A stretch of DNA of 64,000 bases, taken from the NCBI GenBank assembly GCA_011050465.1, contig DRFQ01000009.1, forward strand, positions 128,334 through 192,333, written 5' to 3'. Numbering within the stretch: position 1 is the first letter of the stretch; each line of letters begins with the position of its first letter. The translations under genes were made by a program, and so were the position numbers. The notes under the pieces were generated by a model, which was given only the letters and a program-made list of their open reading frames with translations, searched no databases and had not been told where the DNA came from. The stretch is from Candidatus Nealsonbacteria bacterium (GTDB lineage Bacteria; Patescibacteriota; Minisyncoccia; Minisyncoccales; RBG-13-36-15). Below, one piece after another: positions 6,915 through 40,528 of the stretch.

Positions 6915-7871
6915 TTATTCTTTTAGATTTTTGCCGCTGTGAAACTTGCGATGAATATCACGGAGACGTTTATTTGTTACATGGGTATATACTTGGGTTG
7001 TAACAATATTTCTATGGCCCAAAAACTCCTGAATGCTTCTTAAATCAACGCCCTGGCTTAACAGATCTGTAGCGTAAGAATGCCGAAGGGTGTGGGGGGT
7101 AGTAAAAACGGGGACACCGGCCAATACGGCGTATTTTTTTACGATTCTCTCTATGGACCGAGGCGTTAAACGACTCTCTGCATCTTTTCTGGCCCTATAA
7201 TGAATAAATAAGGCCTTTTCTTTGTCTTTTCGGGTATCCAGATATTTTTTAATCCAGGACAGAGCCCTTTCTGAAAAATAGACTGTTCTGGGATGGCTTC
7301 CTTTGCCAATAATACTAAGTTCTAAATCCTTCTTATCTCTTATATTAACAAATTGCTCTTGGTTAAGGGCAACTAATTCAGCTATTCTTAGGCCTGTTGA
7401 GAAAAAGGACTCTAAAATAGCCTTATCCCTTAAGCCAATAGTGTCTTTTAACTTGGGAGTTGTTAAAAGCTTCTCAATTTGCTCCAAATTAAGGAATTTT
7501 ACGGTTTTTTCCTTGCTGGCTGTCTTTGGAAGACCTATTTTATCTGCGGGGAGTGAAGCTATGTCTTTAGCTGTAAAATAGCCCAGAAGGGCTCTCAGGG
7601 CGATTAAATAGTAGTTCTGGGTGACTTTCTTGAGAGACTGGCCCTTATTGCCCTGAAATCTGGAAAGATAAAGTCTATAAGTCCAGATATCGTCAGCAGT
7701 CAATTCATGGGGTCTCAAATCCGCCTTTTTGGCTCCCTTAAGCCACGAAACAAACTTCCCAAGGTAATGCTTATAATTTTCCTGGGTTTTGTCTGCTAAA
7801 CCTTTTTCAACTTCGCAATAATCTAAAAAATCGGGAATATGTTTTAAAATTGGTTTATCTGATTGTTTCAT
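6915..7871 (-). CDS. tyrosine site-specific recombinase (XerC/D-like)
   Basis: C-terminal HTLRHSYATDLL...LGHRNIVTTQVYTHV (R-H-R-Y catalytic pattern) and an N-terminal SAM-like domain. Confidence 0.9.
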   Translation of the reverse strand: MKQSDKPILKHIPDFLDYCEVEKGLADKTQENYKHYLGKFVSWLKGAKKADLRPHELTADDIWTYRLYLSRFQGNKGQSLKKVTQNYYLIALRALLGYFTAKDIASLPADKIGLPKTASKEKTVKFLNLEQIEKLLTTPKLKDTIGLRDKAILESFFSTGLRIAELVALNQEQFVNIRDKKDLELSIIGKGSHPRTVYFSERALSWIKKYLDTRKDKEKALFIHYRARKDAESRLTPRSIERIVKKYAVLAGVPVFTTPHTLRHSYATDLLSQGVDLRSIQEFLGHRNIVTTQVYTHVTNKRLRDIHRKFHSGKNLKE

Positions 7872-8588: not shown

Positions 8589-9056
8589 TTATCCGATTAG
8601 TACTCCTATGTTTTCAAGAGATTGGATAGCTGCCAGGAAAACTTCATACGGCATATAGCTCATAGATGGTGAAAGTATTCTGACCTCGTTGTCTTGAAGT
8701 TCAATGCCAATGAAGTATAGTTCTTGGTCTGGTATTAATACATCTTCGGTCTCTTTTTCTATGCCACTGAATTTATAAAGTATTCGTCCATAATAGGAGA
8801 ATCCATTTCGGGGTACTGTAATCTTTGGCAGGAGTTGATGCCTACCTATAACATCCTTAACCGCAGCCATGTCGGTCGGGTTATCTGTTTTTGGCAGAAG
8901 AATATACAGAATTCCTTTTTCCAATGAATCGACTGGACCCCTTGCGAATGTTTCATCGTATGATATCCTCGCGTCCGAAAGCCCTCTATAATAGAGAACC
9001 CAACCTTTTCCAGTAATAGCCTGGAAGATTTCTTGGGCTTGTTGGTCCATAGCCAA
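8589..9056 (-). CDS. hypothetical protein (155 aa), cassette gene
   Basis: GGAGGTATTGG SD; own promoter at 9112-9139. Confidence 0.55.
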   Translation of the reverse strand: MAMDQQAQEIFQAITGKGWVLYYRGLSDARISYDETFARGPVDSLEKGILYILLPKTDNPTDMAAVKDVIGRHQLLPKITVPRNGFSYYGRILYKFSGIEKETEDVLIPDQELYFIGIELQDNEVRILSPSMSYMPYEVFLAAIQSLENIGVLIG

Positions 9057-9111
9057 TACCTCCTTTTCCAGCTCTAATCTTTCTTTTGAAGGAACTATTC
9101 ATCCTAAAAAT

Positions 9112-9139
9112 AGTCTAATGCTTTCAAATAATAAGTCAA
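9112..9139 (-). promoter_or_regulatory. promoter (CCTCGGRCTTGACTTAT...TAGACTATT family)
   Basis: Minus strand reads CCTCGGACTTGACT-N16-TAGACT. Confidence 0.6.
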
Positions 9140-9224: not shown

Positions 9225-9527
9225 TTAATCAAACGACGCAGACGGTCCTCTTTCTGAGTTTATAACAAACTGTACCATGGCTTGAAGGTGGCGAAAGTTA
9301 GTTCTATCATAAACTCCAATGCCAATAGGTCGACCACCAGACCACCAAAATACTTGGTGTCTTCCAATGCCATTAGTCGAACCCTTATATGTCCATGTTC
9401 CCCTTCTTGTATTAATTTCTACTTCCTCTGGCGCCCTTTTTTGTAAACTAATGAAACTATGGTTATTTGGAACAGGCGCAAGAAAAACTAAGTTCCTTCT
9501 CTTGTACTTCACTCTGGGAGTCGACAT
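9225..9527 (-). CDS. hypothetical protein (100 aa), cassette gene
   Basis: AAGGAGGGGAAGG SD; promoter at 9564-9591; terminator at 9160-9190. Confidence 0.5.
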   Translation of the reverse strand: MSTPRVKYKRRNLVFLAPVPNNHSFISLQKRAPEEVEINTRRGTWTYKGSTNGIGRHQVFWWSGGRPIGIGVYDRTNFRHLQAMVQFVINSERGPSASFD

Positions 9528-9563
9528 CCTTCCCCTCCTTGTCTTGGTAATGCTGCTAAGAAT

Positions 9564-9591
9564 AGTCTACAAAATATTCGATATAAGTCAA
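9564..9591 (-). promoter_or_regulatory. promoter (same family as 9112-9139)
   Basis: Minus strand reads CCTCGGGCTTGACT-N16-TAGACT. Confidence 0.6.
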
Positions 9592-9609
9592 GCCCGAGGC
9601 AACCACAAA

Positions 9610-9800
9610 ACAAAAAGCCGAGGACACAATTTGGATTGGATTAACCAGAACTCGGGTTGTCCCCAGCCTTGGAGAATGGCATCGTACTTCGTGGGTTTAC
9701 CACCAGTAAGCTTTACCCCCTCCTTGATGGATGGGGTTGGTTGGCCAGGGTTGACGCGAGGGTTCGGCTCTAATCTTACTGACTTCCCAACCTCATCCGT
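9610..9800 (-). ncRNA. candidate about 190-nt structured transcript (motif X, copy 1)
   Basis: Consensus promoter at 9806-9834 and a hairpin plus T-run at about 9610-9660. No plausible start codon. The 5' end is homologous to the leader at 43876-44023. Confidence 0.35.
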
Positions 9801-9805
9801 CTTCA

Positions 9806-9834
9806 ATTTTAATTTAAACTTAATTTTTTGTCAA
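9806..9834 (-). promoter_or_regulatory. consensus promoter of the motif-X transcript
   Basis: Minus strand reads TTGACA-N17-TAAAAT. Confidence 0.6.
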
Positions 9835-10034
9835 TAAAAAAAATGTTTGGAAAAAATAAAAATTGTTCAGCGATAATTTCTTTTAAAGTTAATAAACAAA
9901 CTATTAGTCCCCTACCCTGTCTCGCCTTGGTTTTGGAACAATTTTCCAATAATTAAACCAATAAGACTATAGTTTTTTCCGCTAACTCTTTAGTCTTACC
10001 TGTCAAAAAAATAGGTACTTTAAAAGAGGTTTAT

Positions 10035-11222
10035 TCAGAAAGAGTTCCTAGCTTCTTCTTCTTTGCCAGCTATTAAAGATAGTTCGTCTATCGTGGGTTT
10101 TTTCAAATATAAATTACCAGCTTCTCTATAGAGATTAGCGGCATTTTGATAGCCATTCCTTTCCAAAAATTTTGCAAATTCCAAACGGCCTACCGCCATT
10201 TCCCCGAGGAAGAAAGAATTCAGAGCTTCTCCTATTTCGAAAGCAGCATTCTCGGATATCTCTCTGTTCCAGGCCATTATCTCTTTTATTGATTTTCTTT
10301 TAGCTTTATCTTTAAGATAAAGCATCCAATAAGGACCAAGCTTGTGGCCCTCCATCTGAGGATTAGCACCATTTTCCCAAGCTTCTAAAAAGTTTTTGTA
10401 TGAAGCTGGCATATTTTTTATGGCTAAATCAGGGTCGTCAGGATCATTAATATAAACATAATTCTCATCATAACCAGTAACGATCATAAAGTGAGAGGCA
10501 TGAAATTTTTCCCATGCCCAGCTAGGAGAAATTTTGGCAAAATCATCGGTAACATAATAAAGATCTAAATGAACCAAAACTGGTTTGTCAGAGGAGATTA
10601 TACTTTTTAAATAGCGGGTAGCTTCTTCCTTATTACTAAAATATTTAACTTCTTTAGCGCTTTCCTTAAAATTAAATTGAGTTGGAGGTTCTGATCCAGC
10701 TGGAGGCGGAGGTGGTGGCGGAGGTGGTGGTGAAGTGCCAGGTGGTGGCGGAGGTGGTGGCGGTGGCAAATGATTGATTGAATCTTTGCCTCCAGACAAA
10801 AGTCCTAGTCCAAAATTATAGCCAAGGTTTTCGGCTCCAGTTATAATAGAATTTCCTTGGAAATCATTCGTTAAGCCAATAAAAGGAACAACATTTTTAG
10901 CTGTTACTCCAATCCCAGAATAGGCAACGATTTCAGTGAAATCTAAATCTGGATCATCAAATAAAGCCAACATCGCAAAAGCTCCAAGATAACATAAACC
11001 CGGCCCCTCTTCGGTTTCTTTTTCTTTTAGAACTTCCCCAGCAAAAACTCTTGAAACATTTAATTGGTAAGCCTGAGGAATAACTTTTTCCTTTTCCTCT
11101 AAAGAAGGTTCTTCTTCTGGGGCTGTCTCTTCTTCGGGAACAGAAATATTTTTCCACACAAAAAACCCTCCTACACCTAAGCCGATTAAAATTATTAAAA
11201 TGATTGAAATTTTGGTTTTCAT
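10035..11222 (-). CDS. secreted C39-like (BtrH/DUF4872-like) cysteine peptidase domain protein with a poly-Pro linker
   Basis: Signal anchor, GLCYLGAFAM (Cys), PPPPPPPPPPGTSPPPPPPPPPP linker, and HFMIVTGYDENYVYINDP (His). Confidence 0.6.
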   Translation of the reverse strand: MKTKISIILIILIGLGVGGFFVWKNISVPEEETAPEEEPSLEEKEKVIPQAYQLNVSRVFAGEVLKEKETEEGPGLCYLGAFAMLALFDDPDLDFTEIVAYSGIGVTAKNVVPFIGLTNDFQGNSIITGAENLGYNFGLGLLSGGKDSINHLPPPPPPPPPGTSPPPPPPPPPPAGSEPPTQFNFKESAKEVKYFSNKEEATRYLKSIISSDKPVLVHLDLYYVTDDFAKISPSWAWEKFHASHFMIVTGYDENYVYINDPDDPDLAIKNMPASYKNFLEAWENGANPQMEGHKLGPYWMLYLKDKAKRKSIKEIMAWNREISENAAFEIGEALNSFFLGEMAVGRLEFAKFLERNGYQNAANLYREAGNLYLKKPTIDELSLIAGKEEEARNSF

Positions 11223-20296: not shown

Positions 20297-20517
20297 AAAA
20301 TATTAAACGTGATTATTTAATTTTTATCACATTTTTTAATTTTTTCTTTCATAAATTTTCTTTACCCATATACCTATTTTGGGTAGTGGTTGGCTCAACT
20401 TCCCTTGTCCGTCCGAAGCCCAAAGGGCGAAGAAGGAGGCCTGCCCTGAATCGACTGATTCCGGAGCCTAAATTCCTGCCCCGTAGTTCTGCCTCAGGCG
20501 GATACTGCTGGGGTTAG

Positions 20518-25498: not shown

Positions 25499-25512
25499 CT
25501 TGTGCGACATTT
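25499..25512 (+). repeat. left copy of the 14-bp inverted repeat CTTGTGCGACATTT
   Basis: Its exact reverse complement lies at 36940-36953. Confidence 0.85.
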
Positions 25513-25560
25513 GGTTTTAAACAAAATCTTCCTGGCCACATGGGATTATGCTAGAACATT

Positions 25561-27534
25561 TTATTCTAAATAGTCCTTGATCCATTCGATAAGAGTGGGG
25601 GGATCTTTCTTTTGGCTATAAATATATAGTTTTTTCTTTACTCGCGTGATAGACACTATAAATTGGCACAAAAGTTCATTTGTCACCTTGTCTTCATTAA
25701 AATTTACGAGAAAAACATAATCCGCACTAAGCCCTTTTGATCCCAGCGGATTAACAATCTTAATAGAAATATCTTTGTGACCCTCTTTACGAACGTTACT
25801 TCCCTTTATTTCCTTTTTTAATTTATTAAAAGCAATTTCAGAAGGATTATAACTAAACTGATTGAGGATAAATTTTCTTTCCTCATCGTTTATTTTTATG
25901 TTGTCATTAATCTTCTTTAATATTTTTAATACTTTCTTAATCTCACTTTGAATAGTTTTGGGTAATAGACTTCTAAAAACATCTTGTTCTGATTTGCTCT
26001 TCACGATGATTCTTTTAAATTCGGCTGATTTCATCTTGTCCTTAGACAGGATTCTCCAACCAAGATTGCGATCACTGTCCTTTAAAAGAAGCTCGTACCC
26101 CTCCATTTTGATATCATCTTTTCTTTTATTCTGAATATTCCTAAAACCTTTCTCGCGAAGATAATTTTCCATTTCATCTTTTTGCTTAGGAGATCCATGT
26201 GCACAAATTATTAATACAGAAAAATTTCTATCTCGTTCAAAAATCTCCTTAATATCCTTATCAATAAAGAAATCTACCCTCTGTACTTCTCCCCTATAAG
26301 AGATGTTTTGGTATTTTTTAGATATTGCATCTTTTTCTTCTGAACAAAAATACTCAAATCTTTTAGGAATCCTTTTTTTTAGAAATCCCCCTTTCTCGGC
26401 CTTAGATATGAGAGTATTAACAGAATCTATTATTACTTTTGGACAACGAGAACAAAAAGGAAGGGAACGATAAAAATAATTACTTTTAAAATTAAGGCAT
26501 CTAGAACGTATTTCTTCTGGATAAGCGTTTTTAAAATCATAAAGTGATTGATCGTCATCACCAACTATCAGAATCGGGCTTTCATCAGCTAATAAATCTA
26601 ACAATTTTATTTCTAACTTATTAAAATCTTGGAATTCGTCGATTAATATTTGAGAATATTGAGGTATTTCTTTTTTGTCTTTTTCGAAATGCTTTATTAA
26701 ATCGTAGACAGCACAACTCGGACCAATACAGTCATAGTATTTTCTTCTTTTAAAATAAAAAGCTAAAGCTTTAGAATTATTTCTATCCAATAAGTCATTA
26801 AAAATATCCTTAAAGGAAATCTTTCTCCCCTCGATAATATTAAAGTCCTCGCTTATAACATCCGCTATTTGCATAAAAACTTCGGGTTTCTCTGTGGAGC
26901 CTGGGAATAATTCATTCATAACAAAGCTATGCAATGTCCTTACATCGGCCAACTGTCCTAACCCAAACTTTAAATCATTCACTAATTCATTAATGAAGGT
27001 CATGATAAGGTTGTTATCATTTTCTTTCTTTTTACAAACCTTCTCAAACAAGAAAGTTTTTCCTGTTCCGGGCCCGGCCGCAACAACTATTTTAGGTTTA
27101 CTTGATATAATTATTTCATCGGTATGTATTTTTCTTTCTGCTTGATATAAAATTCTTCTCGAAACTTCAGGAGTAAGCCTACTTATAGTTTCTTTAAAAG
27201 TAAACCAATTTCCTTTCTTCTCTACTTTCTGTTCTTTTATTTTTTCACTTTCTGGCACTTCAGATAAATAGAAAAGAAAAAAGTGTATTGTCCTTGAAAT
27301 AGCAGAATCATCTTGATCTACTCTACCAATTTCTCCTTTGCATTCTATGTGGGCATAACCTGTTTTGTGCCTAATACTCTTTATGGCAGTTCCTTCTATG
27401 TTTATCAGATCGGTGTCGCATTTGACTCTGTCACCAATGAGTGACCACTCGTTATTACTTTTTCTCTGAATCAAATAATATTTTCCGTCACTAGGAGACC
27501 AAAGAACACTGACTATAAAAAACTCTTTCTTCAT
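25561..27534 (-). CDS. Nudix-like N-terminal domain fused to a UvrD/PcrA-type SF1 helicase
   Basis: First about 130 aa: Nudix-fold-like with a degenerate box (GDRVKCDTDLINIEGTAIKSIRHKTGY). Then AAGPGTGKTF (motif I), ILIDEFQDFN (II) and IVGDDDQSLY (III). Confidence 0.8.
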   Translation of the reverse strand: MKKEFFIVSVLWSPSDGKYYLIQRKSNNEWSLIGDRVKCDTDLINIEGTAIKSIRHKTGYAHIECKGEIGRVDQDDSAISRTIHFFLFYLSEVPESEKIKEQKVEKKGNWFTFKETISRLTPEVSRRILYQAERKIHTDEIIISSKPKIVVAAGPGTGKTFLFEKVCKKKENDNNLIMTFINELVNDLKFGLGQLADVRTLHSFVMNELFPGSTEKPEVFMQIADVISEDFNIIEGRKISFKDIFNDLLDRNNSKALAFYFKRRKYYDCIGPSCAVYDLIKHFEKDKKEIPQYSQILIDEFQDFNKLEIKLLDLLADESPILIVGDDDQSLYDFKNAYPEEIRSRCLNFKSNYFYRSLPFCSRCPKVIIDSVNTLISKAEKGGFLKKRIPKRFEYFCSEEKDAISKKYQNISYRGEVQRVDFFIDKDIKEIFERDRNFSVLIICAHGSPKQKDEMENYLREKGFRNIQNKRKDDIKMEGYELLLKDSDRNLGWRILSKDKMKSAEFKRIIVKSKSEQDVFRSLLPKTIQSEIKKVLKILKKINDNIKINDEERKFILNQFSYNPSEIAFNKLKKEIKGSNVRKEGHKDISIKIVNPLGSKGLSADYVFLVNFNEDKVTNELLCQFIVSITRVKKKLYIYSQKKDPPTLIEWIKDYLE

Positions 27535-27539
27535 ATGTT

Positions 27540-28193
27540 TTAATTACGAGATTTTCCTGTACGGGTTCTATAATAACACCACTTACAGTTGTTTGGGTCT
27601 TCTTTCGGAGTAGATCCATTTAGAAGTGCAGAAACCGCTGATATAAAAGAATAAAACCCCTTCATATCTTCCTTTATTTCAAACCAATGTGGCTTTGTCT
27701 TAAAAATAACATCATCTCCAGGAAATAAAATTTCCTCTGGACTTATAGCAACAACACCCATTTTACTCACCTTCCTTGGAGAACCAATTTCTGGATTTTC
27801 TAAAGAAAATTTGTATGCGTGTAATTGAGGAAAAAACTTGTTAAGTTTATCTTCACCAGGATTGGTTATCTTAAAGTCAATAACCGCATGCGTTCCATCC
27901 TCTAAACGAGAAACTATATCAAACCTACCGCTAATATAACAATCATCTGTAGGAGGTATGGGTTTTGATTTCAGAAATCCTTCCTTTACTTCAATTTTTC
28001 CTGCTGGCAATCCAGAATTAATCTCTCTTAAATCCATCCCAATAATCGCGTTTTGCAACAACGAATTCATTTTTGTAAAAACTCCTGGCATTCCTATCGA
28101 TGGAAGAGATACGCCATATTTTATCTTTTGGTAATAACAATACTTACAATCCTCGTAAAGATACTTAAAGTCAGATGGACTTAATTTAAACAT
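27540..28193 (-). CDS. Cas4/RecB-like PD-(D/E)xK nuclease with four Cys
   Basis: CKYC near the N-terminus, GRFD, VIDFK, QLHAYKF and C-terminal CKWC. Confidence 0.8.
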   Translation of the reverse strand: MFKLSPSDFKYLYEDCKYCYYQKIKYGVSLPSIGMPGVFTKMNSLLQNAIIGMDLREINSGLPAGKIEVKEGFLKSKPIPPTDDCYISGRFDIVSRLEDGTHAVIDFKITNPGEDKLNKFFPQLHAYKFSLENPEIGSPRKVSKMGVVAISPEEILFPGDDVIFKTKPHWFEIKEDMKGFYSFISAVSALLNGSTPKEDPNNCKWCYYRTRTGKSRN

Positions 28194-28225
28194 AATTTTA
28201 TTTCTTAATTAATTCTTTAACTTTG

Positions 28226-28504
28226 TTATTCTCCAAATCCAGCGCGCTTCATTTTCTCATTAATCGTTCTTTTCTCGCCCGGCAACCGCACCTTCACTAC
28301 TGGACGACCATATGATTTTCCTATCTCCTGAATATAAACCTGCTCTTCCTCTATCATTTCCCTTAATATCTCTTTCGCTTTCTTATAACCTCTTTGACCT
28401 TTTTCTGGCGCATATACTTCAGCAAGGCGATAAAATTGTCCTCTCGGGCCCTGAAAAGTATCTCCATCGCGAACTTTTTTAACGGTGATTTTTTTCATAG
28501 CCAA
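28226..28504 (-). CDS. miniature SNase (thermonuclease)-like protein
   Basis: KVRDGDTF...YRLAEVYAPE resembles the DGDT...RL.GIDTPE core, but the protein is only 92 aa and the catalytic set is incomplete. Confidence 0.4.
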   Translation of the reverse strand: MAMKKITVKKVRDGDTFQGPRGQFYRLAEVYAPEKGQRGYKKAKEILREMIEEEQVYIQEIGKSYGRPVVKVRLPGEKRTINEKMKRAGFGE

Positions 28505-28620
28505 TTATTAACTTTGGTTAATTATATCTTCGACCTTATATTTTATACCAAACAAAAAAAGGGGTCAAACCCTTTCTTAAGTTAAATTTCCCTCGACTTT
28601 GAGCTAAATTTTAGTTATTT

Positions 28621-29001
28621 TTACTCTCGGCTATACCATTCGTCTTCCTCGGATATTTTTGAAGGATAAAAATCGAGTTGTTCTGCCGGAATACTTAATT
28701 TAAACGCACCGAAGGCACGTGCTTCCTGCCAGGTGGATTTGTTATTAGGATCGATATTAAAAACTTTATCTTTAAAAATCACAATTAAATCTTTTCCCTC
28801 ATCATAAATGTGAAAATAATCAGGTCTATCCCCTATCATTGCATTCTGAATTTCTTTTATAGCGTCTTCTACCGGTTCTGTAATTTCAACGATATGCAAA
28901 TGCCAATTCTGCCTTTCTGAGAACTTCGTTCTAAGAATTCTATAATTCTCTAAAATTCTTGGATTTTCTAAGCTTTCCTCAATGATTATAGAGTGATACA
29001 T
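28621..29001 (-). CDS. hypothetical protein (126 aa)
   Basis: GAGGGA SD; sits in an operon with Dam. Confidence 0.5.
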   Translation of the reverse strand: MYHSIIIEESLENPRILENYRILRTKFSERQNWHLHIVEITEPVEDAIKEIQNAMIGDRPDYFHIYDEGKDLIVIFKDKVFNIDPNNKSTWQEARAFGAFKLSIPAEQLDFYPSKISEEDEWYSRE

Positions 29002-29041
29002 AAATTTCCCTCAATTTCGGGCTAAATTTTGATTAAAATAA

Positions 29042-29887
29042 CTATCGAGCTGCAGTTTTCGCTCTTGAGATTGAATCAGAAAAAATCATCAACTCGCGAG
29101 CCTTTCTAATCTTGCAAGAATCATAGACACTATACTTCAAACTAAGGCGTTTTCTCATCCTGTCGGGATAAAATTCTCTGATTTTTTTTACTTCATCGTA
29201 AGTCAATACCCAATTATAGTTAGTATTTGTATTTAATAAATCGGCGAGTTTCTTGTGATCATCCTCTTTATAGTGATTGAGATATAACATTGCACCCTTT
29301 TTAAAATATGGGGGATCTAAGTAAATAAAAGTGTTATTTCTATTTAAATATCTTCTCGTAAGTTGTATTCCATCTTTATTTAATACTGAAATACGGTCTT
29401 GAAATTTCCCAATCTTGCGAACCCGTAAAGCCAGTTTTTTCTTATTGTATCGCATATTTATTTTGTACGGACCGTCTTGATTCTTTCCCCCAATCGGCCC
29501 CGCATTCATTACGCCAGATCTATTAGTTCGATTAAGGAAAAAAGTGGCGAACCCTTTTTCAAAAATATTGGCATTCTTATTTAAATAAATTTGCTTTTGT
29601 TTTTTCCATTCAGTAATAGTCACTGGAGTCGTTATAATTTTCTGCGCAAATCGTTCTGAATTCTGGGTTACTGATTTCCAAAATGCATAAATCGTTTTGT
29701 CTAGATCATTTATGACTATTTGCCTGACCCTATTGTCAAACAACAAAGTTAAGGCTACCCCTGCGCCACCCGCATAAGGTTCGACGTAGGTCGGTTTATC
29801 CAAACCAATGGCAACCAAAATTCTTTTAAGCTCGTCTGCTAAAAATGTTTTACCTCCGGGATATCTTAATGGAGAATAAAATTCCAT
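29042..29887 (-). CDS. Dam-family (D12 class) N6-adenine DNA methyltransferase
   Basis: RYPGGK N-terminal motif and IYLDPPY catalytic motif. Confidence 0.9.
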   Translation of the reverse strand: MEFYSPLRYPGGKTFLADELKRILVAIGLDKPTYVEPYAGGAGVALTLLFDNRVRQIVINDLDKTIYAFWKSVTQNSERFAQKIITTPVTITEWKKQKQIYLNKNANIFEKGFATFFLNRTNRSGVMNAGPIGGKNQDGPYKINMRYNKKKLALRVRKIGKFQDRISVLNKDGIQLTRRYLNRNNTFIYLDPPYFKKGAMLYLNHYKEDDHKKLADLLNTNTNYNWVLTYDEVKKIREFYPDRMRKRLSLKYSVYDSCKIRKARELMIFSDSISRAKTAAR

Positions 29888-29894
29888 ATATAAA

Positions 29895-31331
29895 TCACCC
29901 TCTATTAATAATAAGAGATACTTTGATGTTCTTCAGTCTATCGTGGGTAAATGCTCTTTCTAGGGTAGAGTGTTTTTTAATCTTTTTTTCAGGATCATAG
30001 ATAAAGAAATAGATTCTTTTACAATCCGGACGTCTACTGTACTTAACTAAATCATCGTTCAATTCTTTCTCGATATTTTTTCTTATGCTTTTGTCGCCAC
30101 CTTTTCTTTTAAGAGTTGTTTTTACTTCAATAATAGTGCCGTTATCAAGAAGCAAGAAATCGCCTCTTGATGGCGAAGCTCCGTCTGAAGGATTCCATAC
30201 TTCATTCTCTACATCATCAAAAAACATAGTTAAAAGTGCGTGTAATAAATCTTGTACGTCATATTCATCGCCCATATTCAATGTTTCTCTATTCTTATAT
30301 CTATCTTTCAATTGTTCAGCAACAGCATCAAAATGGATTAAAACATGATCGACTATCTCTACCGCCTCTTGGAGTGGATACTTAACTGAGTTCCGTCGTC
30401 TTCTCAGTTTTAGACTTGGAATATTAGGACTTCTTCTTTTGCTTTTCTTTTTTTTCCGTAGCTTCGTTTTAGGAAACTTGATAGGATCTATTTTAGAAAA
30501 TACATTATCTAATAAATAATCTTTTGTAGCTTGTGCGGGTATCTTTTTCTCTCCAACAATATATGGGAGTAATTTCTTCAGATTACTTTCAGCATTTTTT
30601 CTATTTTTAAAGATGATATTCCCTTTATCGTCGATTAAATAATCAATTAGTTTTTTACCGTTTGCGCTTATAATTAACCTTTCAATTGTATTAAATCCTG
30701 TTTTGAGTAACTCCTCTTCTTTTTTTGCGCCCTCAACCTGGTCTAAAATGTATTCGTAGAAATATAATTTGCCTAACTCGTCTTTAAACTTTGCAGTAGT
30801 AGTCCCATATTCCTTAGAGGCGGAATCAACAGTATATTCACCCCCGTCTATCAAATTTCTGTACATTCTTAATCTCTGTAGAACTTGCCACGGTTTTAAG
30901 AGTTGGTTTACGTGAATATCCCAAATTTCCTTTTCTGCTTCTTTACGCGAGGGCGCAATAGTAATCTTTACACTTTTAAGTTGTCTTTTATTAAGAATCT
31001 TACCTAAACCTTCTAATTCCTTTTTGTTCCGTGCACCAGGGGCGAGTTTAGGATTTAATAGCAACTGACAAGCAGCTAATCTCCTATTTCCATCTAATAC
31101 AATTGATTCCCCATTTTCTTCACAAATAATAGCCACAGCGCTCCTGTGGTAACCATTATTAGCAATACTTCTAGCTATCATCATTACACCTTCTTTTTCT
31201 AAAAGATAATTACGTACTTGATTGACATCTTTTAATTCTTTTACGTGTTTTGGCACCCGAGGATTTTGCAAATCCAAGCTTAGTTCACTTATAGATACTT
31301 TTTTATCACGCCATTGTTTTTTTGCATCCAT
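29895..31331 (-). CDS. ParB/Srx-like N-terminal domain fused to a C-terminal PD-(D/E)xK-like nuclease domain
   Basis: IVLDGNRRLAA (ParB-N). C-terminus has DEYDVQD...RGDFLLLDNGTIIEVK (D...ExK). Confidence 0.65.
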   Translation of the reverse strand: MDAKKQWRDKKVSISELSLDLQNPRVPKHVKELKDVNQVRNYLLEKEGVMMIARSIANNGYHRSAVAIICEENGESIVLDGNRRLAACQLLLNPKLAPGARNKKELEGLGKILNKRQLKSVKITIAPSRKEAEKEIWDIHVNQLLKPWQVLQRLRMYRNLIDGGEYTVDSASKEYGTTTAKFKDELGKLYFYEYILDQVEGAKKEEELLKTGFNTIERLIISANGKKLIDYLIDDKGNIIFKNRKNAESNLKKLLPYIVGEKKIPAQATKDYLLDNVFSKIDPIKFPKTKLRKKKKSKRRSPNIPSLKLRRRRNSVKYPLQEAVEIVDHVLIHFDAVAEQLKDRYKNRETLNMGDEYDVQDLLHALLTMFFDDVENEVWNPSDGASPSRGDFLLLDNGTIIEVKTTLKRKGGDKSIRKNIEKELNDDLVKYSRRPDCKRIYFFIYDPEKKIKKHSTLERAFTHDRLKNIKVSLIINRG

Positions 31332-31359
31332 ATAATTATATTTTAATTTTATCTATCAA

Positions 31360-31530
31360 TTAACTCTTCAAGTTTTTACGATTCATGTGATAACGCATTT
31401 GTTCTCTGGTTCTCATGGTTTTTTCATCGGCAATATCAACCTTACCACATTTTGGGCATTTTTCCTTACAAACAGGACAATAAAACTCTCCGCACTTCTT
31501 ACATTTTATTTGCATAAATTGATGTGGCAT
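31360..31530 (-). CDS. 56-aa zinc-ribbon protein (below the track cutoff)
   Basis: MPHQFMQIKCKKCGEFYCPVCKEKCPKCGKVD... has three CxxC pairs. It lies 28 nt upstream of the ParB-fusion gene. No clear SD. Confidence 0.4.
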   Translation of the reverse strand: MPHQFMQIKCKKCGEFYCPVCKEKCPKCGKVDIADEKTMRTREQMRYHMNRKNLKS

Positions 31531-31592
31531 ATTGAGCTGAATTTGTCGCTTTTTGTGCCTTGCGCGACGTTTTTAGGCTAAATTTTAGTTAT

Positions 31593-31883
31593 TTATACAC
31601 TCAAACCAGCTTCTTTTCTAAAGGCTGGACGACTACATGCTAAAGAAGGGCTATATTTATAGGCCTTCAGGTGATGTTCAATGACTTCTTCTTTATTTTT
31701 TTCAAACCCGCCATATCCCAATAGCTTTTTAACAGCCAATTCTTCTAAAGATGAAGCAATTTTCCTTTGTATGGTCCAATTTACATTGTATTTTTTCCAA
31801 AGACTGACATCCTTCCATTTAAAAAATTCAAATTCTTCTTTTGTAAGCCGCGGGAATTTGTAGTTATACTTAGCAATTTTCAT
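31593..31883 (-). CDS. hypothetical protein (96 aa)
   Basis: 14-nt gap after the upstream gene. Confidence 0.5.
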   Translation of the reverse strand: MKIAKYNYKFPRLTKEEFEFFKWKDVSLWKKYNVNWTIQRKIASSLEELAVKKLLGYGGFEKNKEEVIEHHLKAYKYSPSLACSRPAFRKEAGLSV

Positions 31884-31897
31884 AAATTTGAGTTATT

Positions 31898-32842
31898 TTA
31901 GCCTAAACGTCGAATATACTCTTTGAAAGCTCTCTCTAAACGAATCATTGCATCAATCATTTTGTCTTGTAATTTCTCCCAATTTTCTTTATCGTTCAAT
32001 CCTTTCCCCTTAAATTTAATAGAAATTCGGGACGCACGAGCATTATCTAATCTTTCCCAATTTAGTCTTCCCTTAAACTTTTTTTCAATTTGATTCTTAT
32101 GTTTATATAATTTATCGAAACGAATTTTATTAATATTTGGCTTTATATAATCCTTACCTTTATCAAAATATATTTCACAACCACCGTATTTTTTTGTTAT
32201 TACGTAGCTGTAAATTATCCCTTGTTTGCCAGCACCGGTCCCAATCCAAGAATAAATACCGGGAGTAATATTTGAATGTAAAGATGTCTTTCCTTTAGCT
32301 TTTTCTAAAAGTGCTGTCCAAAATTCTTTTCTTAAAATGTGTCTTTTAGCATATTCCTTTTTCTTTTTACCAATAGTCTCAGACCCTTCTGATGGCCCGG
32401 CGATAATGGAAAATTTGGCAGCCGGATTGGAATTTCCTATTTTGTATGCTTCTATTTGTACTAAATAAAAAGCTGTCTCTGGGCCAAATTCATTCAACCA
32501 GTCAATTGCTCTTTCGTGCTCCTGCCTAGGGTTACTTGATATCCAGATAGCAATTTTTGCATCTAAATTTGCTAGATAAGTTAAAATTTTACCCAAATGT
32601 TCATGGTTTGTTTTCTCTAATTGATTTTCTATAACTACTTTCTGTCCGTTTTCGTCTTCTGCAATGATATCCACAGAAAAAGAACCCGCGTCACCTTCTC
32701 TGTCAATGGCTGTTAAATCCATATCTAATTCTTCTCCCAAAATTTCAATGTTATCGAAAAGCCAAGAGGTGAAATCTCTAGCTTCATTCTTCCAAACTTC
32801 CCTTAAAGGAACTTTTTTTATTCTTTCTATATGCTTTTTCAT
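31898..32842 (-). CDS. DUF4268-type protein with an N-terminal PD-(D/E)xK-like module
   Basis: FSVDIIAEDENGQKVVIENQLEKTNHEHLGKILTY pattern. Confidence 0.65.
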   Translation of the reverse strand: MKKHIERIKKVPLREVWKNEARDFTSWLFDNIEILGEELDMDLTAIDREGDAGSFSVDIIAEDENGQKVVIENQLEKTNHEHLGKILTYLANLDAKIAIWISSNPRQEHERAIDWLNEFGPETAFYLVQIEAYKIGNSNPAAKFSIIAGPSEGSETIGKKKKEYAKRHILRKEFWTALLEKAKGKTSLHSNITPGIYSWIGTGAGKQGIIYSYVITKKYGGCEIYFDKGKDYIKPNINKIRFDKLYKHKNQIEKKFKGRLNWERLDNARASRISIKFKGKGLNDKENWEKLQDKMIDAMIRLERAFKEYIRRLG

Positions 32843-32878
32843 GATTTTATTTCTAAATTAATTCTTCGATTTTTTCTT

Positions 32879-33736
32879 CTAAGCCGGGCAGTAATTTGAA
32901 AGCACTTTCTTATAACTATTCGTGTAGTTTTCGCTCTTTCTGAAATATTTTCTATCAACTGTCCCTTCTTTTATGTGATATTCTATCCCTTTCTCCTCGC
33001 AGAATTTTATAACTCTGTAGGCGCAATCATTGTAGAATGTTTTGTAACTATCAAAATAAGTAGTCAAGGCATTATAATTCCATCTACCGAAAACTATTTT
33101 ATCGACAAAAGCTATTTTTTCCAATATTTTGGTTAGATCCTGTTCAATAAGGTTAGGCGTAGGATAAGGTTCCATACTTACCCAAGTTTTCAAACCTTTA
33201 TTATGTAAGAACTTAAGGGTTTTTACTCTTTTTTCTATCGACACAGCGAATGGCTCTTTACTTCTTCTGAATTTTTCAGACAAAGTGATTATAGTCGAAC
33301 CGTATTCATTATCCCTGCCGTAAATATTTTTTTTAGTCAAAATTTTAGGATATATACCTTTACTTATAGTTACCACTTTTATATTGTCTTCATTCAATCT
33401 TTTGATAATTTCTAAGCTAAGATCTACTACTTCTTTTTGTTTATACATAAAAGGGTCTGTCGAAAAACACAAGTAGACATATTTTATATCTTTTTTATAT
33501 TTCGGAATTTCTAGATCTAATAATTCTAAGGCGTTGCTAACAATTTTAGGTCTTATCCATTCTTTGTAATTTTTAATGATCCCACACCTTTTTTTCATCA
33601 GCATTGCATAGCAAGGATAAGTACACCCATGAGAACATCCCTCAACGTGATTAATGCAATAATCAGCGTATTCTACCCCGCTTTTATATAAAAGAGATTT
33701 TCTAATGATTCTCTGCATACTATTATTATATATCAA
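32879..33736 (-). CDS. radical-SAM-like protein with a non-canonical Cx3Cx3C motif
   Basis: INHVEGCSHGCTYPCYAM, versus the canonical Cx3Cx2C in the paralog 22932..23717. Overlaps the upstream gene by 11 nt. Confidence 0.65.
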   Translation of the reverse strand: MIYNNSMQRIIRKSLLYKSGVEYADYCINHVEGCSHGCTYPCYAMLMKKRCGIIKNYKEWIRPKIVSNALELLDLEIPKYKKDIKYVYLCFSTDPFMYKQKEVVDLSLEIIKRLNEDNIKVVTISKGIYPKILTKKNIYGRDNEYGSTIITLSEKFRRSKEPFAVSIEKRVKTLKFLHNKGLKTWVSMEPYPTPNLIEQDLTKILEKIAFVDKIVFGRWNYNALTTYFDSYKTFYNDCAYRVIKFCEEKGIEYHIKEGTVDRKYFRKSENYTNSYKKVLSNYCPA

Positions 33737-34616
33737 AAAGAGCCTTCTGTGGATTTCTCGCCCTGAAGACTTTGGTTTTTTTCTCCCAGAATTCGATCCC
33801 CCTTTCGTGTTTACTGAATAAAATTAAATAATATAAGGAGGTGTTTTTAATATTTTTAAATATGACCAGTGACGGACTCGAGAAATAACCCAAACCTTTT
33901 ATCATATCGATATAATTCTTACATAAATTTCTGATATTTATTTCTTTACTATTTCCCCAGGTTTTTTTATTAGCAATGTCTTTCCATCCAGGATGGAACT
34001 TATCTAATTTCTTAGAATTTAATTTTCTAATTAAGGCAGCAGAAACCGCTCTTTCAACAGAAGCTATTGGGTAATTCACTATTAAGTCTATCTTCCTTTT
34101 TGCTAATTGTTTGTAAGAACTGAAATGAAATTGCAAACTGTCGGGATCTATAACGGCTAAACTTAAAGAATTATCAGAAATAGATTTTTTTATAATGTTT
34201 CCTATAGCCAAATTACAGTCTTCGTTATAATATTCTACACTGTTTTTTTCTTTTGCTCTTTGTTTTAAGCTGTTTATACAGACTGGATTTTTGTCTATTA
34301 AAAAATATTTTGTAAATTTATTCTTTAAATTTATTGCCTCTAGGCAGGTTCCATCTATTTCTTTTAATCCCTCTCTAATAATACACTTTCCTGGGCCCGA
34401 AAATAAATCTATATAATAAAGTTTTGGCCATTTCTTTTTCATCGCCCCCGAAAAAATATCAATGAAATATTTCAAATGTTCAATTTTATCCTTTGACCAA
34501 TAACCGGAACAACGCAAAGCCAACCCGTCATTTTTAGATTTATATTTTTGACATATTCCATCGTTATTATTTACGCAATTACCGTTTTTATAAAACTTAC
34601 ATTTTTTCATAATCAA
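33726..34616 (-). CDS. TcmP-like (three-Cys-motif partner protein) candidate
   Basis: YWSKDKIEHLKYFIDIF...KLYYIDLFSGPGKC fits the remembered W.x.K...L..Y...Y(I/V)D.F(A/S)G.G pattern. Has an extra Cys-rich N-terminus. Confidence 0.55.
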   Translation of the reverse strand: MIMKKCKFYKNGNCVNNNDGICQKYKSKNDGLALRCSGYWSKDKIEHLKYFIDIFSGAMKKKWPKLYYIDLFSGPGKCIIREGLKEIDGTCLEAINLKNKFTKYFLIDKNPVCINSLKQRAKEKNSVEYYNEDCNLAIGNIIKKSISDNSLSLAVIDPDSLQFHFSSYKQLAKRKIDLIVNYPIASVERAVSAALIRKLNSKKLDKFHPGWKDIANKKTWGNSKEINIRNLCKNYIDMIKGLGYFSSPSLVIFKNIKNTSLYYLILFSKHERGIEFWEKKTKVFRARNPQKALFDI

Positions 34617-34688
34617 AAAACCGTCCTAATGAGTGACCTCTACTCTGTTCAATTTTCTGTAATTTAATTTTCTTCATTTTCCATAATT

Positions 34689-35777
34689 TTATTTTCCAGA
34701 TTTAGTTCGATTGTCTTGTTTACACAACATCTGGCAATTCTCTGAAATAGTTTTTCCACCTTCATGCCAAGGCTTTATGTGGTCAGCTTCCATTTCTTCT
34801 ATTTCGAAATACTTCTTGCATTTTGTGCAGACACCTTTTTGTCTCTCATACGCCTCTCGTTTCATTTTGTCAGTAAACGCGCGTATTGAGAGATATTTTT
34901 CTTGTCTAGTCAATACATAAGGGTAAATGCCTGGTTTTTTCGTTACGTCTTCATCTTGCATTAATTCAGCAATCTCGGTTTCTAGTTTATCGACACTTAG
35001 TTTTTTGTCTTTGAATTGATTGTATGGTTCACCCCATTGCACGCTCTTCATCTCTCTGCGATAATTCGTGAAAGTCTTCCTCACCCACGCTATTACATTT
35101 TGGAAATAGTCCCACAGCTCGTCGGCATTCATGTATTGTTGGTGTTTGGCCATGTAATCTTCAATTTTTCCATAGTTGATCCACGAAAGAACAGTTTCCA
35201 AATATTCTTGTCGGATTGGTTTACCGCTGACTAATTGCCCACCGTCATTTGCCAGCAGATACGCAGCGCAGTTTGTTTTGCTAAATTTTAATTTAGCGTC
35301 GGAGAGCCATGGTCCAGTGTAAACTGCATTCCTCAGTTCTTGGTCGGTCAGTTTTTCACCGGCGATATTGATAATTCTAAACCAATCAAGGCGTTCTTTG
35401 TCTGTGCCCTCGCAGATGTAAATCATGAGCTTATAATCCAAAATCTGTTTTTTTTCTTCGCCAGTTAAGTTGTGGAAATAGAGATTATCCAGTGAAAAAT
35501 CTCCGTTCACATATTGCCCAATGCTAATGGTGCGCTGTTGACCATCAAGCATCTCAAAACAATTTTTGTTTTTCAACCAATACATTACATTGAGTGGAAA
35601 ATTCTTGCGTATGGATTCGATAACTTCTTTGCGTTGTTTATCGTTATAGATAAATTCACGTTGATATTTTGGGCGAATATCGAGTTTATCACCATAAGCC
35701 ACAACACCTTCTTCGGCACTGTCTTTGTAGTCCTCGATCACTTCGCGTATTGAAATTTGGTGTAGTTTAATTTTCAT
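34689..35777 (-). CDS. DUF262 (GmrSD N-terminal, ParB-like) domain fused to an HNH endonuclease
   Basis: IRPKYQREF and LDGQQRT (DUF262). C-terminal CTKCKK...ADHIKPWHEGGKT...NCQMLCKQDNRTK (HNH). Confidence 0.85.
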   Translation of the reverse strand: MKIKLHQISIREVIEDYKDSAEEGVVAYGDKLDIRPKYQREFIYNDKQRKEVIESIRKNFPLNVMYWLKNKNCFEMLDGQQRTISIGQYVNGDFSLDNLYFHNLTGEEKKQILDYKLMIYICEGTDKERLDWFRIINIAGEKLTDQELRNAVYTGPWLSDAKLKFSKTNCAAYLLANDGGQLVSGKPIRQEYLETVLSWINYGKIEDYMAKHQQYMNADELWDYFQNVIAWVRKTFTNYRREMKSVQWGEPYNQFKDKKLSVDKLETEIAELMQDEDVTKKPGIYPYVLTRQEKYLSIRAFTDKMKREAYERQKGVCTKCKKYFEIEEMEADHIKPWHEGGKTISENCQMLCKQDNRTKSGK

Positions 35778-35786
35778 ACTAATTCT

Positions 35787-36830
35787 TTATTTTTTATTTT
35801 TAATTAAAATGCGCGCGTAGATTTCTTTGCCGTCTATCGTAAACCTTTTTCCGTAATTTGGATTGTCTTCGACATACCTGTCTATGCCGATAATCTCAAA
35901 CTGCTTGGGATTATATTTATCAACAAATGTAATTGGAACACCCATTACACCTTTGTAGTCCATTGGAATATCAACATACCGATTTATATTGATAGCATCA
36001 TAGTCGTCATACTTGGGATATTCTTCTGAGCTGTACTTTTTATACAAAGTAAGTTCTTCGTGACGTTTTGTTGTATCAAGATTTGTAAACCACGCGATAT
36101 TGCCCATGCTAAAATATTTCACACCATCTTCAATTTTTATTCTCGACTCAGTTTGTATGTCATAGTTCTCGGGAACTTGAAACCACTTTGTGCCGCCATT
36201 GTCATATCCAAGCCATAACCTATTTTCTTTAATTAGTTTGAAAATTTCTTTGTACGTAATGGCGTTTTGATTACCAAGGATCAAAAACTTTCTGTTGTAT
36301 TCCATAAGTTGCTCAACGTATTCACGAAATAGTGAAAACGGGGGGTTTGTTACCACTATATCAGCTCGTTTGAGCAGTTCTGTGCACTCATCGCTTCGAA
36401 AATCACCTTCTCTATTTAAGGGGGTTGCGGTGTTTTTGTCGTGCTTTAGTAAATACTTTACATCGTCGAGGTTTACCGCACCATCGCCGTCGATATCCGA
36501 CACTTCTTTGATTTCGATTTTGAACGGCTCCTTGCCCGTCGGCTTTAGTCCTTCCACCTCAAACAGTGGCAATTGCCCGCCGGCAATCGGCGATTTAACA
36601 TAACTCGTAGTGATGAGTTTTGTTAACCCCAGCGCGTTGAAATTAGCAGCAAAATACTTAAAGAAGTTGCTCTCGAACGGATCATCGCAGTTACAGTACA
36701 CAACTTTACCACGGAATTGGTCCTTGTAGTGCTTCGCCTCTTTTTCAATATCAGAAAGCTGCGTATAAAACTCGTCTTTCTTTGCTTTGTTTGCTCTAAG
36801 GAAAGATGTATTTAAAGATTTAGTTTTCAT
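35787..36830 (-). CDS. EcoRI-methylase-like N6-adenine DNA methyltransferase
   Basis: DEFYTQLSDIEKE...YCNCDDPFESNFFKYF and DIVVTNPPFSLFREY. Confidence 0.8.
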   Translation of the reverse strand: MKTKSLNTSFLRANKAKKDEFYTQLSDIEKEAKHYKDQFRGKVVYCNCDDPFESNFFKYFAANFNALGLTKLITTSYVKSPIAGGQLPLFEVEGLKPTGKEPFKIEIKEVSDIDGDGAVNLDDVKYLLKHDKNTATPLNREGDFRSDECTELLKRADIVVTNPPFSLFREYVEQLMEYNRKFLILGNQNAITYKEIFKLIKENRLWLGYDNGGTKWFQVPENYDIQTESRIKIEDGVKYFSMGNIAWFTNLDTTKRHEELTLYKKYSSEEYPKYDDYDAININRYVDIPMDYKGVMGVPITFVDKYNPKQFEIIGIDRYVEDNPNYGKRFTIDGKEIYARILIKNKK

Positions 36831-37431: not shown

Positions 37432-37460
37432 ACCCTATTACATCCTTAGTTTTTTGTCAA
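37432..37460 (-). promoter_or_regulatory. P1-family promoter (cassette a)
   Basis: Minus strand reads TTGACAAAAAACTAAGGATGTAATAGGGT. Confidence 0.65.
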
Positions 37461-37813: not shown

Positions 37814-37842
37814 ACTCTATTACAACCTTAGTTATTTGTCAA
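37814..37842 (-). promoter_or_regulatory. P1-family promoter (cassette b)
   Basis: Minus strand reads TTGACAAATAACTAAGGTTGTAATAGAGT. Confidence 0.65.
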
Positions 37843-38282: not shown

Positions 38283-38311
38283 ATTATATTACATCCTTAG
38301 TTATTTGTCAA
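38283..38311 (-). promoter_or_regulatory. P1-family promoter (cassette c)
   Basis: Minus strand reads TTGACAAATAACTAAGGATGTAATATAAT. Confidence 0.7.
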
Positions 38312-38881: not shown

Positions 38882-39079
38882 AGGAGAGAGGAGGTGGTCG
38901 CTTTTACCTTCGCGAACAACCCAGGCTGGGGCGGCCTGGGACGAATGACCTCCCTCTGGTCATTGGTCACTTTCTCTCTCCTATCAACTCTTTACAGTTC
39001 TTTCTACGACAAGCTCTTTGGGACGTATGTCCCACATCGCAGGGCCACCACCAACAACAACATCGGTGGCCTTTTTTTT
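38882..39079 (+). ncRNA. structured non-coding element, copy 1 (about 200 nt)
   Basis: 15-bp closing helix GGAGAGAGGAGGTGG / CCACTTTCTCTCTCC. Inner hairpins CCCAGGC/GCCTGGG and AATGACC/GGTCATT. 3' hairpin TGGGAC-GTAT-GTCCCA, then terminator GGCCACC...GGTGGCC plus T8. Confidence 0.5.
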
Positions 39080-39588: not shown

Positions 39589-39622
39589 GCCTCTGGCTCA
39601 CGCTAAGAGGCCTTTTTGTTTT
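39589..39622 (+). terminator. T1-like terminator (cassette e)
   Basis: GCCTCTGGCTCACGCTAAGAGGCC plus TTTTTGTTTT. Confidence 0.75.
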
Positions 39623-40522: not shown

Positions 40523-40528
40523 GCTATT

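Follow-up and report, generated by a model that had tools for sequence, protein, structure and literature searches.

Within a 64,000-nucleotide (nt) stretch of a Candidatus Nealsonbacteria bacterium assembly (GCA_011050465.1, contig DRFQ01000009.1, positions 128,334 to 192,333; the whole stretch is referred to below as the window), a promoter followed by a stable hairpin occurs twice on the minus strand. Copy A (9729-9834, promoter and 70-nt hairpin) has no gene attached, and copy B (43953-44058, promoter and 71-nt hairpin) leads the gene of an 80-amino-acid (aa) zinc-finger protein. The features of the two loci are given below, with fold z-scores calculated against dinucleotide shuffles and bit scores from a covariance model (R1) built from four hairpin sequences.

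9806-9843, minus strand: copy A promoter, with a T-run (9835-9843), the -35 element TTGACA (9829-9834), a 17-nt spacer and the -10 element TAAAAT (9806-9811)
9729-9798, minus strand: copy A 5'-terminal hairpin, 70 nt; fold -27.8 kcal/mol, z -4.25; R1 89.6 bits
9669-9728, minus strand: copy A middle segment, the 60 nt after the hairpin, with AUC and then a G-rich tract, AAGGAGGGGG (9716-9725); fold z -1.25
9606-9668, minus strand: terminator-like hairpin of copy A, an 11-base-pair (bp) stem (9658-9668 with 9616-9626), then UUUUUGUUUU; z -2.4
44030-44065, minus strand: copy B promoter, with TTTTATA, TTGACA (44053-44058), a 17-nt spacer and TAAATT (44030-44035)
43953-44023, minus strand: copy B 5'-terminal hairpin, 71 nt; fold -28.9 kcal/mol, z -3.81; R1 96 bits
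43876-43952, minus strand: copy B linker, 77 nt, carrying the ribosome-binding site GGAGGUGGAG
43633-43875, minus strand: gene of the 80-aa zinc-finger protein, with two CxxCxGxG repeats; terminator at 43585-43601

The copy A promoter matches the consensus at 11 of 12 positions. A preliminary description of this locus had called it perfect, which is true of the -35 element and the spacing; the -10 element matches at five of six positions. Promoters of this A type are also present in three related sequences, L089, L104 and L105. From the promoter geometry we infer that transcription of copy A starts at about 9799-9801. The 5' strand of the basal stem P1, GGATGAGGTTGG, begins 7 nt past the -10 element, and P1 pairs 9787-9798 with CCAACCCCATCC (9729-9740) over 12 bp, including one A.C mismatch. 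It is followed by a GAA/CAA internal loop, a second stem P2 (GUCAG/CUGGC, 9779-9783 with 9744-9748) and a variable apical hairpin. No ATG, GTG or TTG is found at a proper distance after AAGGAGGGGG, as had been noted for ATG and GTG after the AAGGAGG of this tract, and the middle segment contains no usable start codon. The predicted transcript of about 190 nt is non-coding, and it ends as previously described in a hairpin plus T-run. This terminator is atypical, having a 31-nt loop that was missed by a simple terminator scan, and it doubles as the opening part of a stereotyped cassette junction (junction repeats).

The elevated G+C content reported for this region was also borne out, with 0.57 in the copy A hairpin and 0.48 in the next 121 nt against 0.365 in the window and 0.28 in the upstream spacer, and 9645-9794 ranks within the top five 150-nt stretches of the window by G+C. 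The sequence of copy A is identical across all strain-level contigs of the window population. Its 3' part (approximately 120-128 nt) has no homologue among the window and related sequences compared. Two origins considered for this tail were rejected: tblastn and blastn searches of the tail against the zinc-finger gene of copy B gave nothing that would identify it as a decayed version of that gene, and comparison with the gene preceding the 100-aa cassette in L105 (see below) revealed no protein-level or convincing DNA similarity that would make it a 3' remnant.

In copy B, the start site is predicted near the 5' end of the hairpin, and P1 begins 6 nt past the -10 element. The hairpin strands GGATGGGGTTGG ... 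CCAACTTCATCC form P1 (44012-44023 with 43953-43964, 12 bp with two G.U pairs), which is followed by an AA/AA internal loop, a P2 of GGUC/GACC and an apical hairpin unrelated in sequence to that of copy A. The ribosome-binding site in the linker can be covered by a local hairpin, the fold of which is no better than that of shuffled sequences (z -0.3; -0.9 in the related sequence L088).

Homology between copy A and the leader of the zinc-finger gene had been claimed from the sequence, and it was confirmed by the diagnostic strands CGGATGRGGTTGGNAGGTCA and CCAACCAACYYCATCC, which are found in the 64-kb window only in copies A and B (chance expectation 0.00 and 0.05). The homology extends into the promoter (TTTTnTATTGACAA ... 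AAATTGAA), and in both copies the strand GGATGnGGTTGG pairs with CCAACnnCATCC to give a 12-bp stem, the GGATG.GGTTGG/CCAACC..CATCC pairing proposed earlier. The T-run and -35 region, the -10 and start region, both P1 strands, the small A-rich loop and the base of P2 are kept between the two copies. The promoter spacer and the hairpin interior are unrelated in sequence, and the interiors still fold as coaxial apical hairpins of similar size. Scanning the window using R1 with filters off returned copies A and B only (next best match E 0.046).

Four distinct hairpins are available for comparison, namely window copy A, the A-type hairpin of L105/L089, window copy B and the B-type hairpin of L088. 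Their folds have z-scores of -4.25, -4.71, -3.81 and -3.69, respectively, with 22-27 predicted pairs per hairpin, and none of 200 shuffles matched any of the four. The P1 and P2 cells are paired in 98% of cases, compared with 52% or less when the partner strand was slid, and the changes seen within the stems are G-C to G-U, A.C to G-C, and U-G to C-G or U-A. In three of the four copies, the promoter-sense strand is favoured by both G.U pairs (6, 4, 4 vs 1, 2, 1) and fold energy, the exception being window copy A, whose palindrome folds better on the opposite strand. The orphan copy A also has the weakest fold (-27.8 vs -36.1 kcal/mol in the gene-linked L105) and a derived A.C mismatch in P1, a single observation that is compatible with relaxed constraint.

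In all copies the hairpin stem starts 0-3 nt after the predicted transcription start (the 14-bp stem of L105 begins 5 nt past the -10 element), a placement that matches that of protective stem-loops at transcript 5' ends. What follows the hairpin is unrelated between contexts and not significantly structured, with fold z-scores of -0.1 (L105), -0.3 and -0.9 (B type) and -1.25 (copy A). Since no structured common sequence follows the hairpin, it would act independently of a downstream platform. The hairpin is portable, being found before the zinc-finger gene, before a 153-aa gene in L105 and before the non-coding tail of copy A.

The history of copy A was approached by protein-anchored look-ups, which reached two related populations, one represented by L088 and the other by L089, L104 and L105. 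The window features involved in the comparison are as follows.

9564-9599, minus strand: junction promoter of the 100-aa cassette (CCTCGGGC, TTGACT, 16 nt, TAGACT), independent of copy A and kept in L089, L104 and L105
9225-9527, minus strand: 100-aa ORFan cassette, separating copy A from the 153-aa gene; located upstream of the A-type module in L105
9051-9147, minus strand: second junction promoter (CCTCGGAC, TTGACT, 16 nt, TAGACT; hexamers at 9112-9139) and leader of the 153-aa gene (GAATAGTTCCTTCAAAAG...)
8589-9050, minus strand: 153-aa ORFan gene (ATG 9048-9050), driven in the window by the junction promoter instead of the A-type promoter

The zinc-finger protein of L088 is 91% identical to that of the window and is preceded by a B-type module with a few changes and with its pairing kept; the upstream neighbour of this module is MarR-like in the window and LiaF-TM in L088. 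The population of L089, L104 and L105 has a homologue of the 100-aa protein (86% identical), the gene of which carries the same junction promoter as in the window, has no hairpin upstream and has the A-type module downstream. In L105, the A-type promoter and hairpin run directly into the homologue of the window gene 8589-9050 as its 5' leader, in the order hairpin, G9, AATAGTTCC..., AAGGAGG and the ATG of the 153-aa homologue; after G9 the sequence reads AATAGTTCCTTCAAAAAAAGGGTTAAAAAAGGAGGCGTTGATT, then ATGGACCAAGCCCAAGAA, which is the start of this homologue. A three-way alignment resolves the L105 leader into window copy A (promoter, hairpin and G-tract) and the window 153-aa leader from GAATAGTTCC on. 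The G-tract of copy A aligns with GGGGGGGGG in the intact L105 leader, and its AAGGAGG is the counterpart of this post-hairpin tract, not a decayed ribosome-binding site. The gene order is X, 100-aa, [PA-hairpin]-153-aa in the related population and [PA-hairpin]-tail-terminator, 100-aa, 153-aa in the window.

Since the A-type module leads the 153-aa homologue in L105, copy A of the window most likely represents a leader that was separated from its gene when cassettes were reshuffled, and not a dedicated small RNA (sRNA). Such reshuffling would leave copy A without a gene and without a true ribosome-binding site, ending in a generic junction terminator. Taken alone, this structural part, a transcribed non-coding leader module that has been uncoupled in the window, appears probable to us. 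The preliminary description had offered a leader-derived sRNA, a conserved cis-regulatory fold or a decayed cassette. The leader origin, the non-coding nature, the fold (kept in L088 and in L089/L104/L105) and the absence of an attached gene in the window were retained from these readings, and the dedicated sRNA and the riboswitch-like fold were not.

Two further observations concern the neighbouring genes. The segment AGAAAGATTAGAGC in the 153-aa leader (9071-9084) resembles AGTAAGATTAGAGC in the copy A hairpin (9767-9780; both minus strand, repeat D20), a likeness that could be a rearrangement scar or a chance match. Between the 100-aa open reading frame (ORF) and its homologue, substitutions number 7, 10 and 8 by codon position, with 5 synonymous and 14 non-synonymous codons and no third-position bias; the case for this ORF being coding is made by its ribosome-binding site, promoter and terminator and not by the substitution pattern.

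Based on these data, we propose that copies A and B represent a portable start module. A near-consensus sigma-70-type promoter would produce a transcript in which a stable hairpin of three tiers (70-76 nt) opens 0-3 nt from the 5' end. In this hairpin the basal stem P1 spans 12-14 bp and P2 spans 4-7 bp, with a small A-rich internal loop between them and an apical hairpin that varies. The module leads different small ORFan genes in a mosaic part of the chromosome, including the 80-aa zinc-finger gene (B) and, in the related population, the 153-aa gene (A type). Reshuffling at terminator/promoter junctions would have separated the A-type module from the 153-aa gene by the 100-aa cassette, so that copy A would now read 60 nt into the terminator before the 100-aa cassette and give a non-coding by-product RNA of about 190 nt. 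Decay that depends on the 5' end requires unpaired 5' nucleotides, and the RppH enzyme of B. subtilis needs at least two of them and prefers at least three (PMC3997798). A triphosphate 5' end locked in a helix should be less accessible to RppH-type pyrophosphate removal and to the subsequent entry of RNase J or E/Y, and this shielding from decay may raise the expression of any gene fused behind the hairpin. The conserved sequence of the basal stem could provide an added docking site for a double-strand-specific factor. We assign a probability of roughly 0.45 to this proposal as a whole (5'-end protection, perhaps with factor docking, and origin of the orphan by uncoupling), and pure stabilisation as the function of the hairpin is put forward more tentatively.

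Several points weigh against this proposal. The evidence comes from four distinct sequences of three closely related populations, and the covariation among them is not significant, with one two-sided pair change and an uninformative shuffle control (388/500). A structural stabiliser needs no conserved 12-bp stem sequence amid a diverged spacer and interior, and this conservation points to sequence-specific recognition or gene conversion. Both the start site and the terminator are predictions. The identity of copy A in all contigs of the window population offers no view of orphan decay, and the rearrangement could have run in either direction, with the window or the L105 arrangement as the ancestral one.

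The window is chromosomal and contains genes of aminoacyl-tRNA synthetases, Mur ligases and a restriction/defence block (~25-37 kb). The Obg protein encoded at 41753-42724, which has 100% identity to an annotated Obg of a Candidatus Nealsonbacteria MAG obtained from marine sediment and whose nearest relatives are from Minisyncoccales, was used as a synteny anchor. Both hairpin copies sit among small ORFan genes, each with its own strong promoter and terminator, and the cassette proteins have no Pfam, NCBIfam, PADLOC or PHROG assignment. Neighbouring cassettes are joined by a stereotyped junction consisting of a terminator hairpin, CTTTTTGTTT, a short spacer and CCTCGGRCTTGAYTT (the -35 element); a CCTCGGRC box abuts the -35 element at these junctions. 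A second promoter type, TTGACAAA[A/T]AA[C/T]TAAGG[A/T]TGTAATA..., occurs in near-identical copies before different small ORFs. The positions of these elements are listed below.

9620-9575, 9170-9123 and 8558-8506, minus strand: cassette junctions in the window
39600-39645 and ~41130-41225, plus strand: cassette junctions in the window
L104:945-990 and L105:695-750: cassette junctions in relatives
9819-9834, 37445-37460, 37827-37842 and 38296-38311, minus strand: second promoter type, followed by the hairpin only at 9819
~40830, plus strand: second promoter type, not followed by the hairpin

The order of cassettes differs between the related populations, which suggests recombination at the junctions. 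Only two promoter-terminator units carry the hairpin. Because the promoter types recur, the likeness of the A and B promoters is partly a genome-wide style, and the hairpin is the specific common feature.

Searches beyond the window and its two related populations revealed no further members. No Rfam family matched at the gathering score anywhere in the window, and around both copies only noise (E >3) was obtained at E up to 10; ARAGORN reported no tRNA or tmRNA. The pattern GGATG[R/N]GGTTGG-N30-60-CCAACCAAC had 86 loci in GTDB species representatives, JGI metagenome contigs and IMG/VR, all of them chance matches on inspection, and a looser pattern had 0 matches in IMG/VR; these scans did not return the source contigs of the window and would miss the L089-type variant TCAATCAAC, and absence there says little. 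A blastn search against phage records produced noise only, and no relatives of the 153-aa and zinc-finger proteins were found in viral contigs. In L090-L093, whose Obg proteins are 88-93% identical, the ~70 kb examined contain no zinc-finger gene, hairpin, junction motif or A-type promoter.

Among the other explanations, a cis-regulatory leader survives best. Here the hairpin would bind a protein or ligand, or would be temperature-sensitive, and would switch the downstream gene. Such a role would fit a conservation that goes beyond pairing and extends to the sequence itself in the basal stem, in the A-rich internal loop and at the base of P2. It would also fit the copy B ribosome-binding site, which the local hairpin can cover with a pairing that is kept by a U-to-C change in L088, and the P1 3' strand, which could alternatively pair with GGAGG-like tracts downstream in copies A and B. 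However, the interior, where a ligand pocket would be expected, shares no sequence between the A and B types, no Rfam match appeared even at E up to 10, and there is no common expression platform, the ribosome-binding site of L105 being free and a terminator being present only in the orphan. No regulator gene accompanies the module either, and the upstream neighbour of copy B differs between populations. A riboswitch or thermometer is made unlikely by the lack of a conserved interior and of a common platform, and we regard cis-regulation in general as unlikely. Two related candidates were set aside. An anti-Shine-Dalgarno switch by the P1 3' strand is possible in A and B and not in L105, and is not a common feature. 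Kink-turn, loop E and G-quadruplex elements were considered by inspection only, and the GA/AG or four-tract patterns are absent from the conserved loop and the G-rich strand.

A free-standing trans-acting sRNA, with the ~190-nt copy A RNA functioning as a decoy or by base-pairing, would explain why copy A has its own near-consensus promoter and predicted terminator, is G+C-rich in an A+T-rich genome and is identical in all strain contigs; the hairpin it has in common with the copy B leader could compete for one factor. We nevertheless consider this improbable, since the one related population available for comparison has the module as the leader of a gene, not as a unit by itself. The 3' 120 nt of copy A have no homologue, its middle part is not significantly structured (z -1.25), its terminator belongs to the generic junction before the next cassette, and its hairpin is the weakest of the four, with a derived mismatch.

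Two further roles for the hairpin appear slightly less probable still. As an RNase III-type processing signal, it would be a long imperfect duplex cleaved to give a defined 5' end. Its coaxial duplex of about 20 bp or more (12-14-bp P1, 4-7-bp P2 and the apical stem) with a small internal loop would suit such an enzyme, and the conserved stem sequence would be expected of nuclease determinants. However, an mRNA from which such a hairpin had been cut would carry a 5' monophosphate, usually a destabilising feature, and the module is not present in many copies like T7 R sites or Correia elements. Alternatively, the P1 stem and A-rich loop might be recognised by a regulator that binds RNA and is dedicated to this task (or else by RNA polymerase or the ribosome), which would coordinate a small regulon of ORFan cassettes in the hypervariable islands of these ultra-small bacteria. 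Abundant copy A RNA would then titrate the factor as a decoy, a leader-derived sponge born of cassette shuffling; we find this equally doubtful.

It is more doubtful that the inverted repeat acts at the DNA level, as an operator, an attC-like recombination site or a miniature mobile element, with the RNA fold being incidental. The unit does lie at synteny break points in a cassette-like array, and the palindrome folds on the other strand too, better there in window copy A. A tyrosine recombinase gene (6915-7871) is located 1.9 kb from the unit; its product is XerC/D-like (~217 bits) and scores 90 bits against the integron integrase model TIGR02249, for which the cutoff is 265. This gene is flanked by housekeeping genes and identical in 13 contigs. 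The module sits with its promoter at the 5' end of a cassette and not at the 3' end of promoterless cassettes, and GTTGGGA and GTTGGAA fail the final pyrimidine of the attC core (RYYYAAC/GTTRRRY). Two copies with diverged interiors in 64 kb, none in ~70 kb of relatives and no visible flanking duplication are not what a mobile element would leave; arms 46-47 bp apart are unlike operators; and the G.U asymmetry favours the transcribed strand in three of the four copies.

Finally, it is very improbable that the hairpin encodes an N-terminal extension or leader peptide (DGVG...NPIH) or that a 172-aa antisense ORF over copy A is real. An ORF does run through the hairpin in L105; it has an ATG where the hairpin begins, shares the frame of the 153-aa gene and was called together with it as one gene. 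Window copies A and B have stop codons in this frame, the ATGs of the copies lie in differing frames, and both window A vs L105 and window B vs L088 differ by a 1-nt indel inside the hairpin. Together, these indels and inconsistent frames exclude the shared N-terminal coding sequence that had been named as the alternative source of the A/B similarity. The start of the 153-aa gene is marked in both populations by a perfect AAGGAGG at the right spacing. A search of 1.84 billion representative proteins with a 72-aa sense ORF over copy A gave no credible homologue, the matches being weak and to long repetitive proteins only. The 172-aa ORF (9319-9837, plus strand), called in public assemblies (e.g. 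L094:4035-4553), runs antisense to the 100-aa gene and its promoter, and also to the terminator and the entire copy A RNA. Neither a ribosome-binding site nor a family match was found for it, and in L089 it is truncated at the very point to which the homology extends. This call, made in a G+C-rich stretch, is probably spurious.

Several other features of the window deserve mention in their own right. A perfect TTGACA-N17-TATAAT promoter at approximately 40496-40524 (plus strand) is followed by ~300 nt with the highest G+C content of the window (0.58) and no convincing ORF; this region (40496-40835, plus strand) ends in GGGUUUUUGUUU just ahead of the next promoter. The fold of 40530-40832 is -112.8 kcal/mol vs -81.6 for shuffled sequences (z -6.0), with no Rfam match and no tmRNA call, and by this prediction 40496-40835 would be a much stronger candidate structured RNA than copy A. 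Further G+C peaks (0.54-0.56) are found at 38921-39070, 44350-44499 and 20365-20514, some of them without a convincing ORF. The gene at 10035-11222 (minus strand), whose DNA is among the G+C-richest, encodes a 395-aa protein in which a signal or membrane anchor is combined with a peptidase C39-like/BtrH_N domain and two long proline runs (PPPPPPPPPP). A defence-type block (~25500-36830, minus strand) directly adjoins the ORFan cassette array at 37-45 kb and includes the following genes.

25561-27534, minus strand: UvrD-like helicase
29895-31331, minus strand: DpnII/MboI-type endonuclease
34689-35777, minus strand: GmrSD-HNH
35787-36830, minus strand: EcoRI-like adenine methylase

To our knowledge, almost nothing is known of transcript architecture or post-transcriptional control in Patescibacteria (the candidate phyla radiation, CPR), which are not cultivable alone. 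The locus described here provides a concrete example of a modular start cassette moving between ORFan genes, and it illustrates how rearrangement can turn a leader into an abundant non-coding RNA, a plausible birth route for sRNAs. In practical terms, the public annotation of the 172-aa antisense ORF, probably spurious, covers the copy A RNA and part of the 100-aa gene. The scope is narrow (three closely related populations) and the function is predicted, so that the importance of the module is modest unless the hairpin is a specific regulatory site or the orphan a functional decoy.

Several known systems share individual features with the module. The put RNAs of HK022 form two stem-loops, modify RNA polymerase and act on long operons with terminators. 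Like them, copies A and B are two related structured RNAs just past promoters, and terminators follow copy A. In contrast to put, neither copy B nor the L105 leader faces a terminator that it could override, and the downstream cassettes come with promoters of their own. The P4 CI RNA and the P1/P7 C4 RNA (Rfam RF01695) are, like copy A, small RNAs derived from an operon 5' leader; unlike them, the orphan arose from rearrangement, has no Rfam match and no complementary target boxes that were found, and shows no evident processing. Correia (CREE) elements of Neisseria are high-copy and mobile, with 26-bp terminal inverted repeats and TA duplications. The module resembles them as a repeated palindromic unit with a promoter that is co-transcribed with its neighbours and folds as an RNA hairpin, but it has two diverged copies, no duplication and a promoter outside the palindrome.

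The RNase III sites of phage T7 (R1.1 type) lie between the genes of a polycistronic RNA. Their hairpins are close to those of the module in size (~60-70 nt), in the succession of lower stem, small internal loop and upper stem, in having related copies in one genome and in the conserved stem sequence. The module differs in its position at the predicted very 5' end behind each promoter. The 5'-terminal stabilising stem-loops of E. coli ompA and papA and of the B. subtilis aprE leader are short (~5-10 bp) and conserved as structure rather than sequence. The module hairpin, by contrast, is three-tier, ~70 nt long and sequence-conserved over its basal 12 bp, and its stabilising effect is a prediction. 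It shares with the ompA, papA and aprE stem-loops a position a few nucleotides from the transcript 5' end, portability and independence from any downstream platform. Thus, with no Rfam family of its own, the module is a lineage-restricted promoter plus 5'-hairpin leader that belongs with the known terminal stem-loops of 5' untranslated regions.

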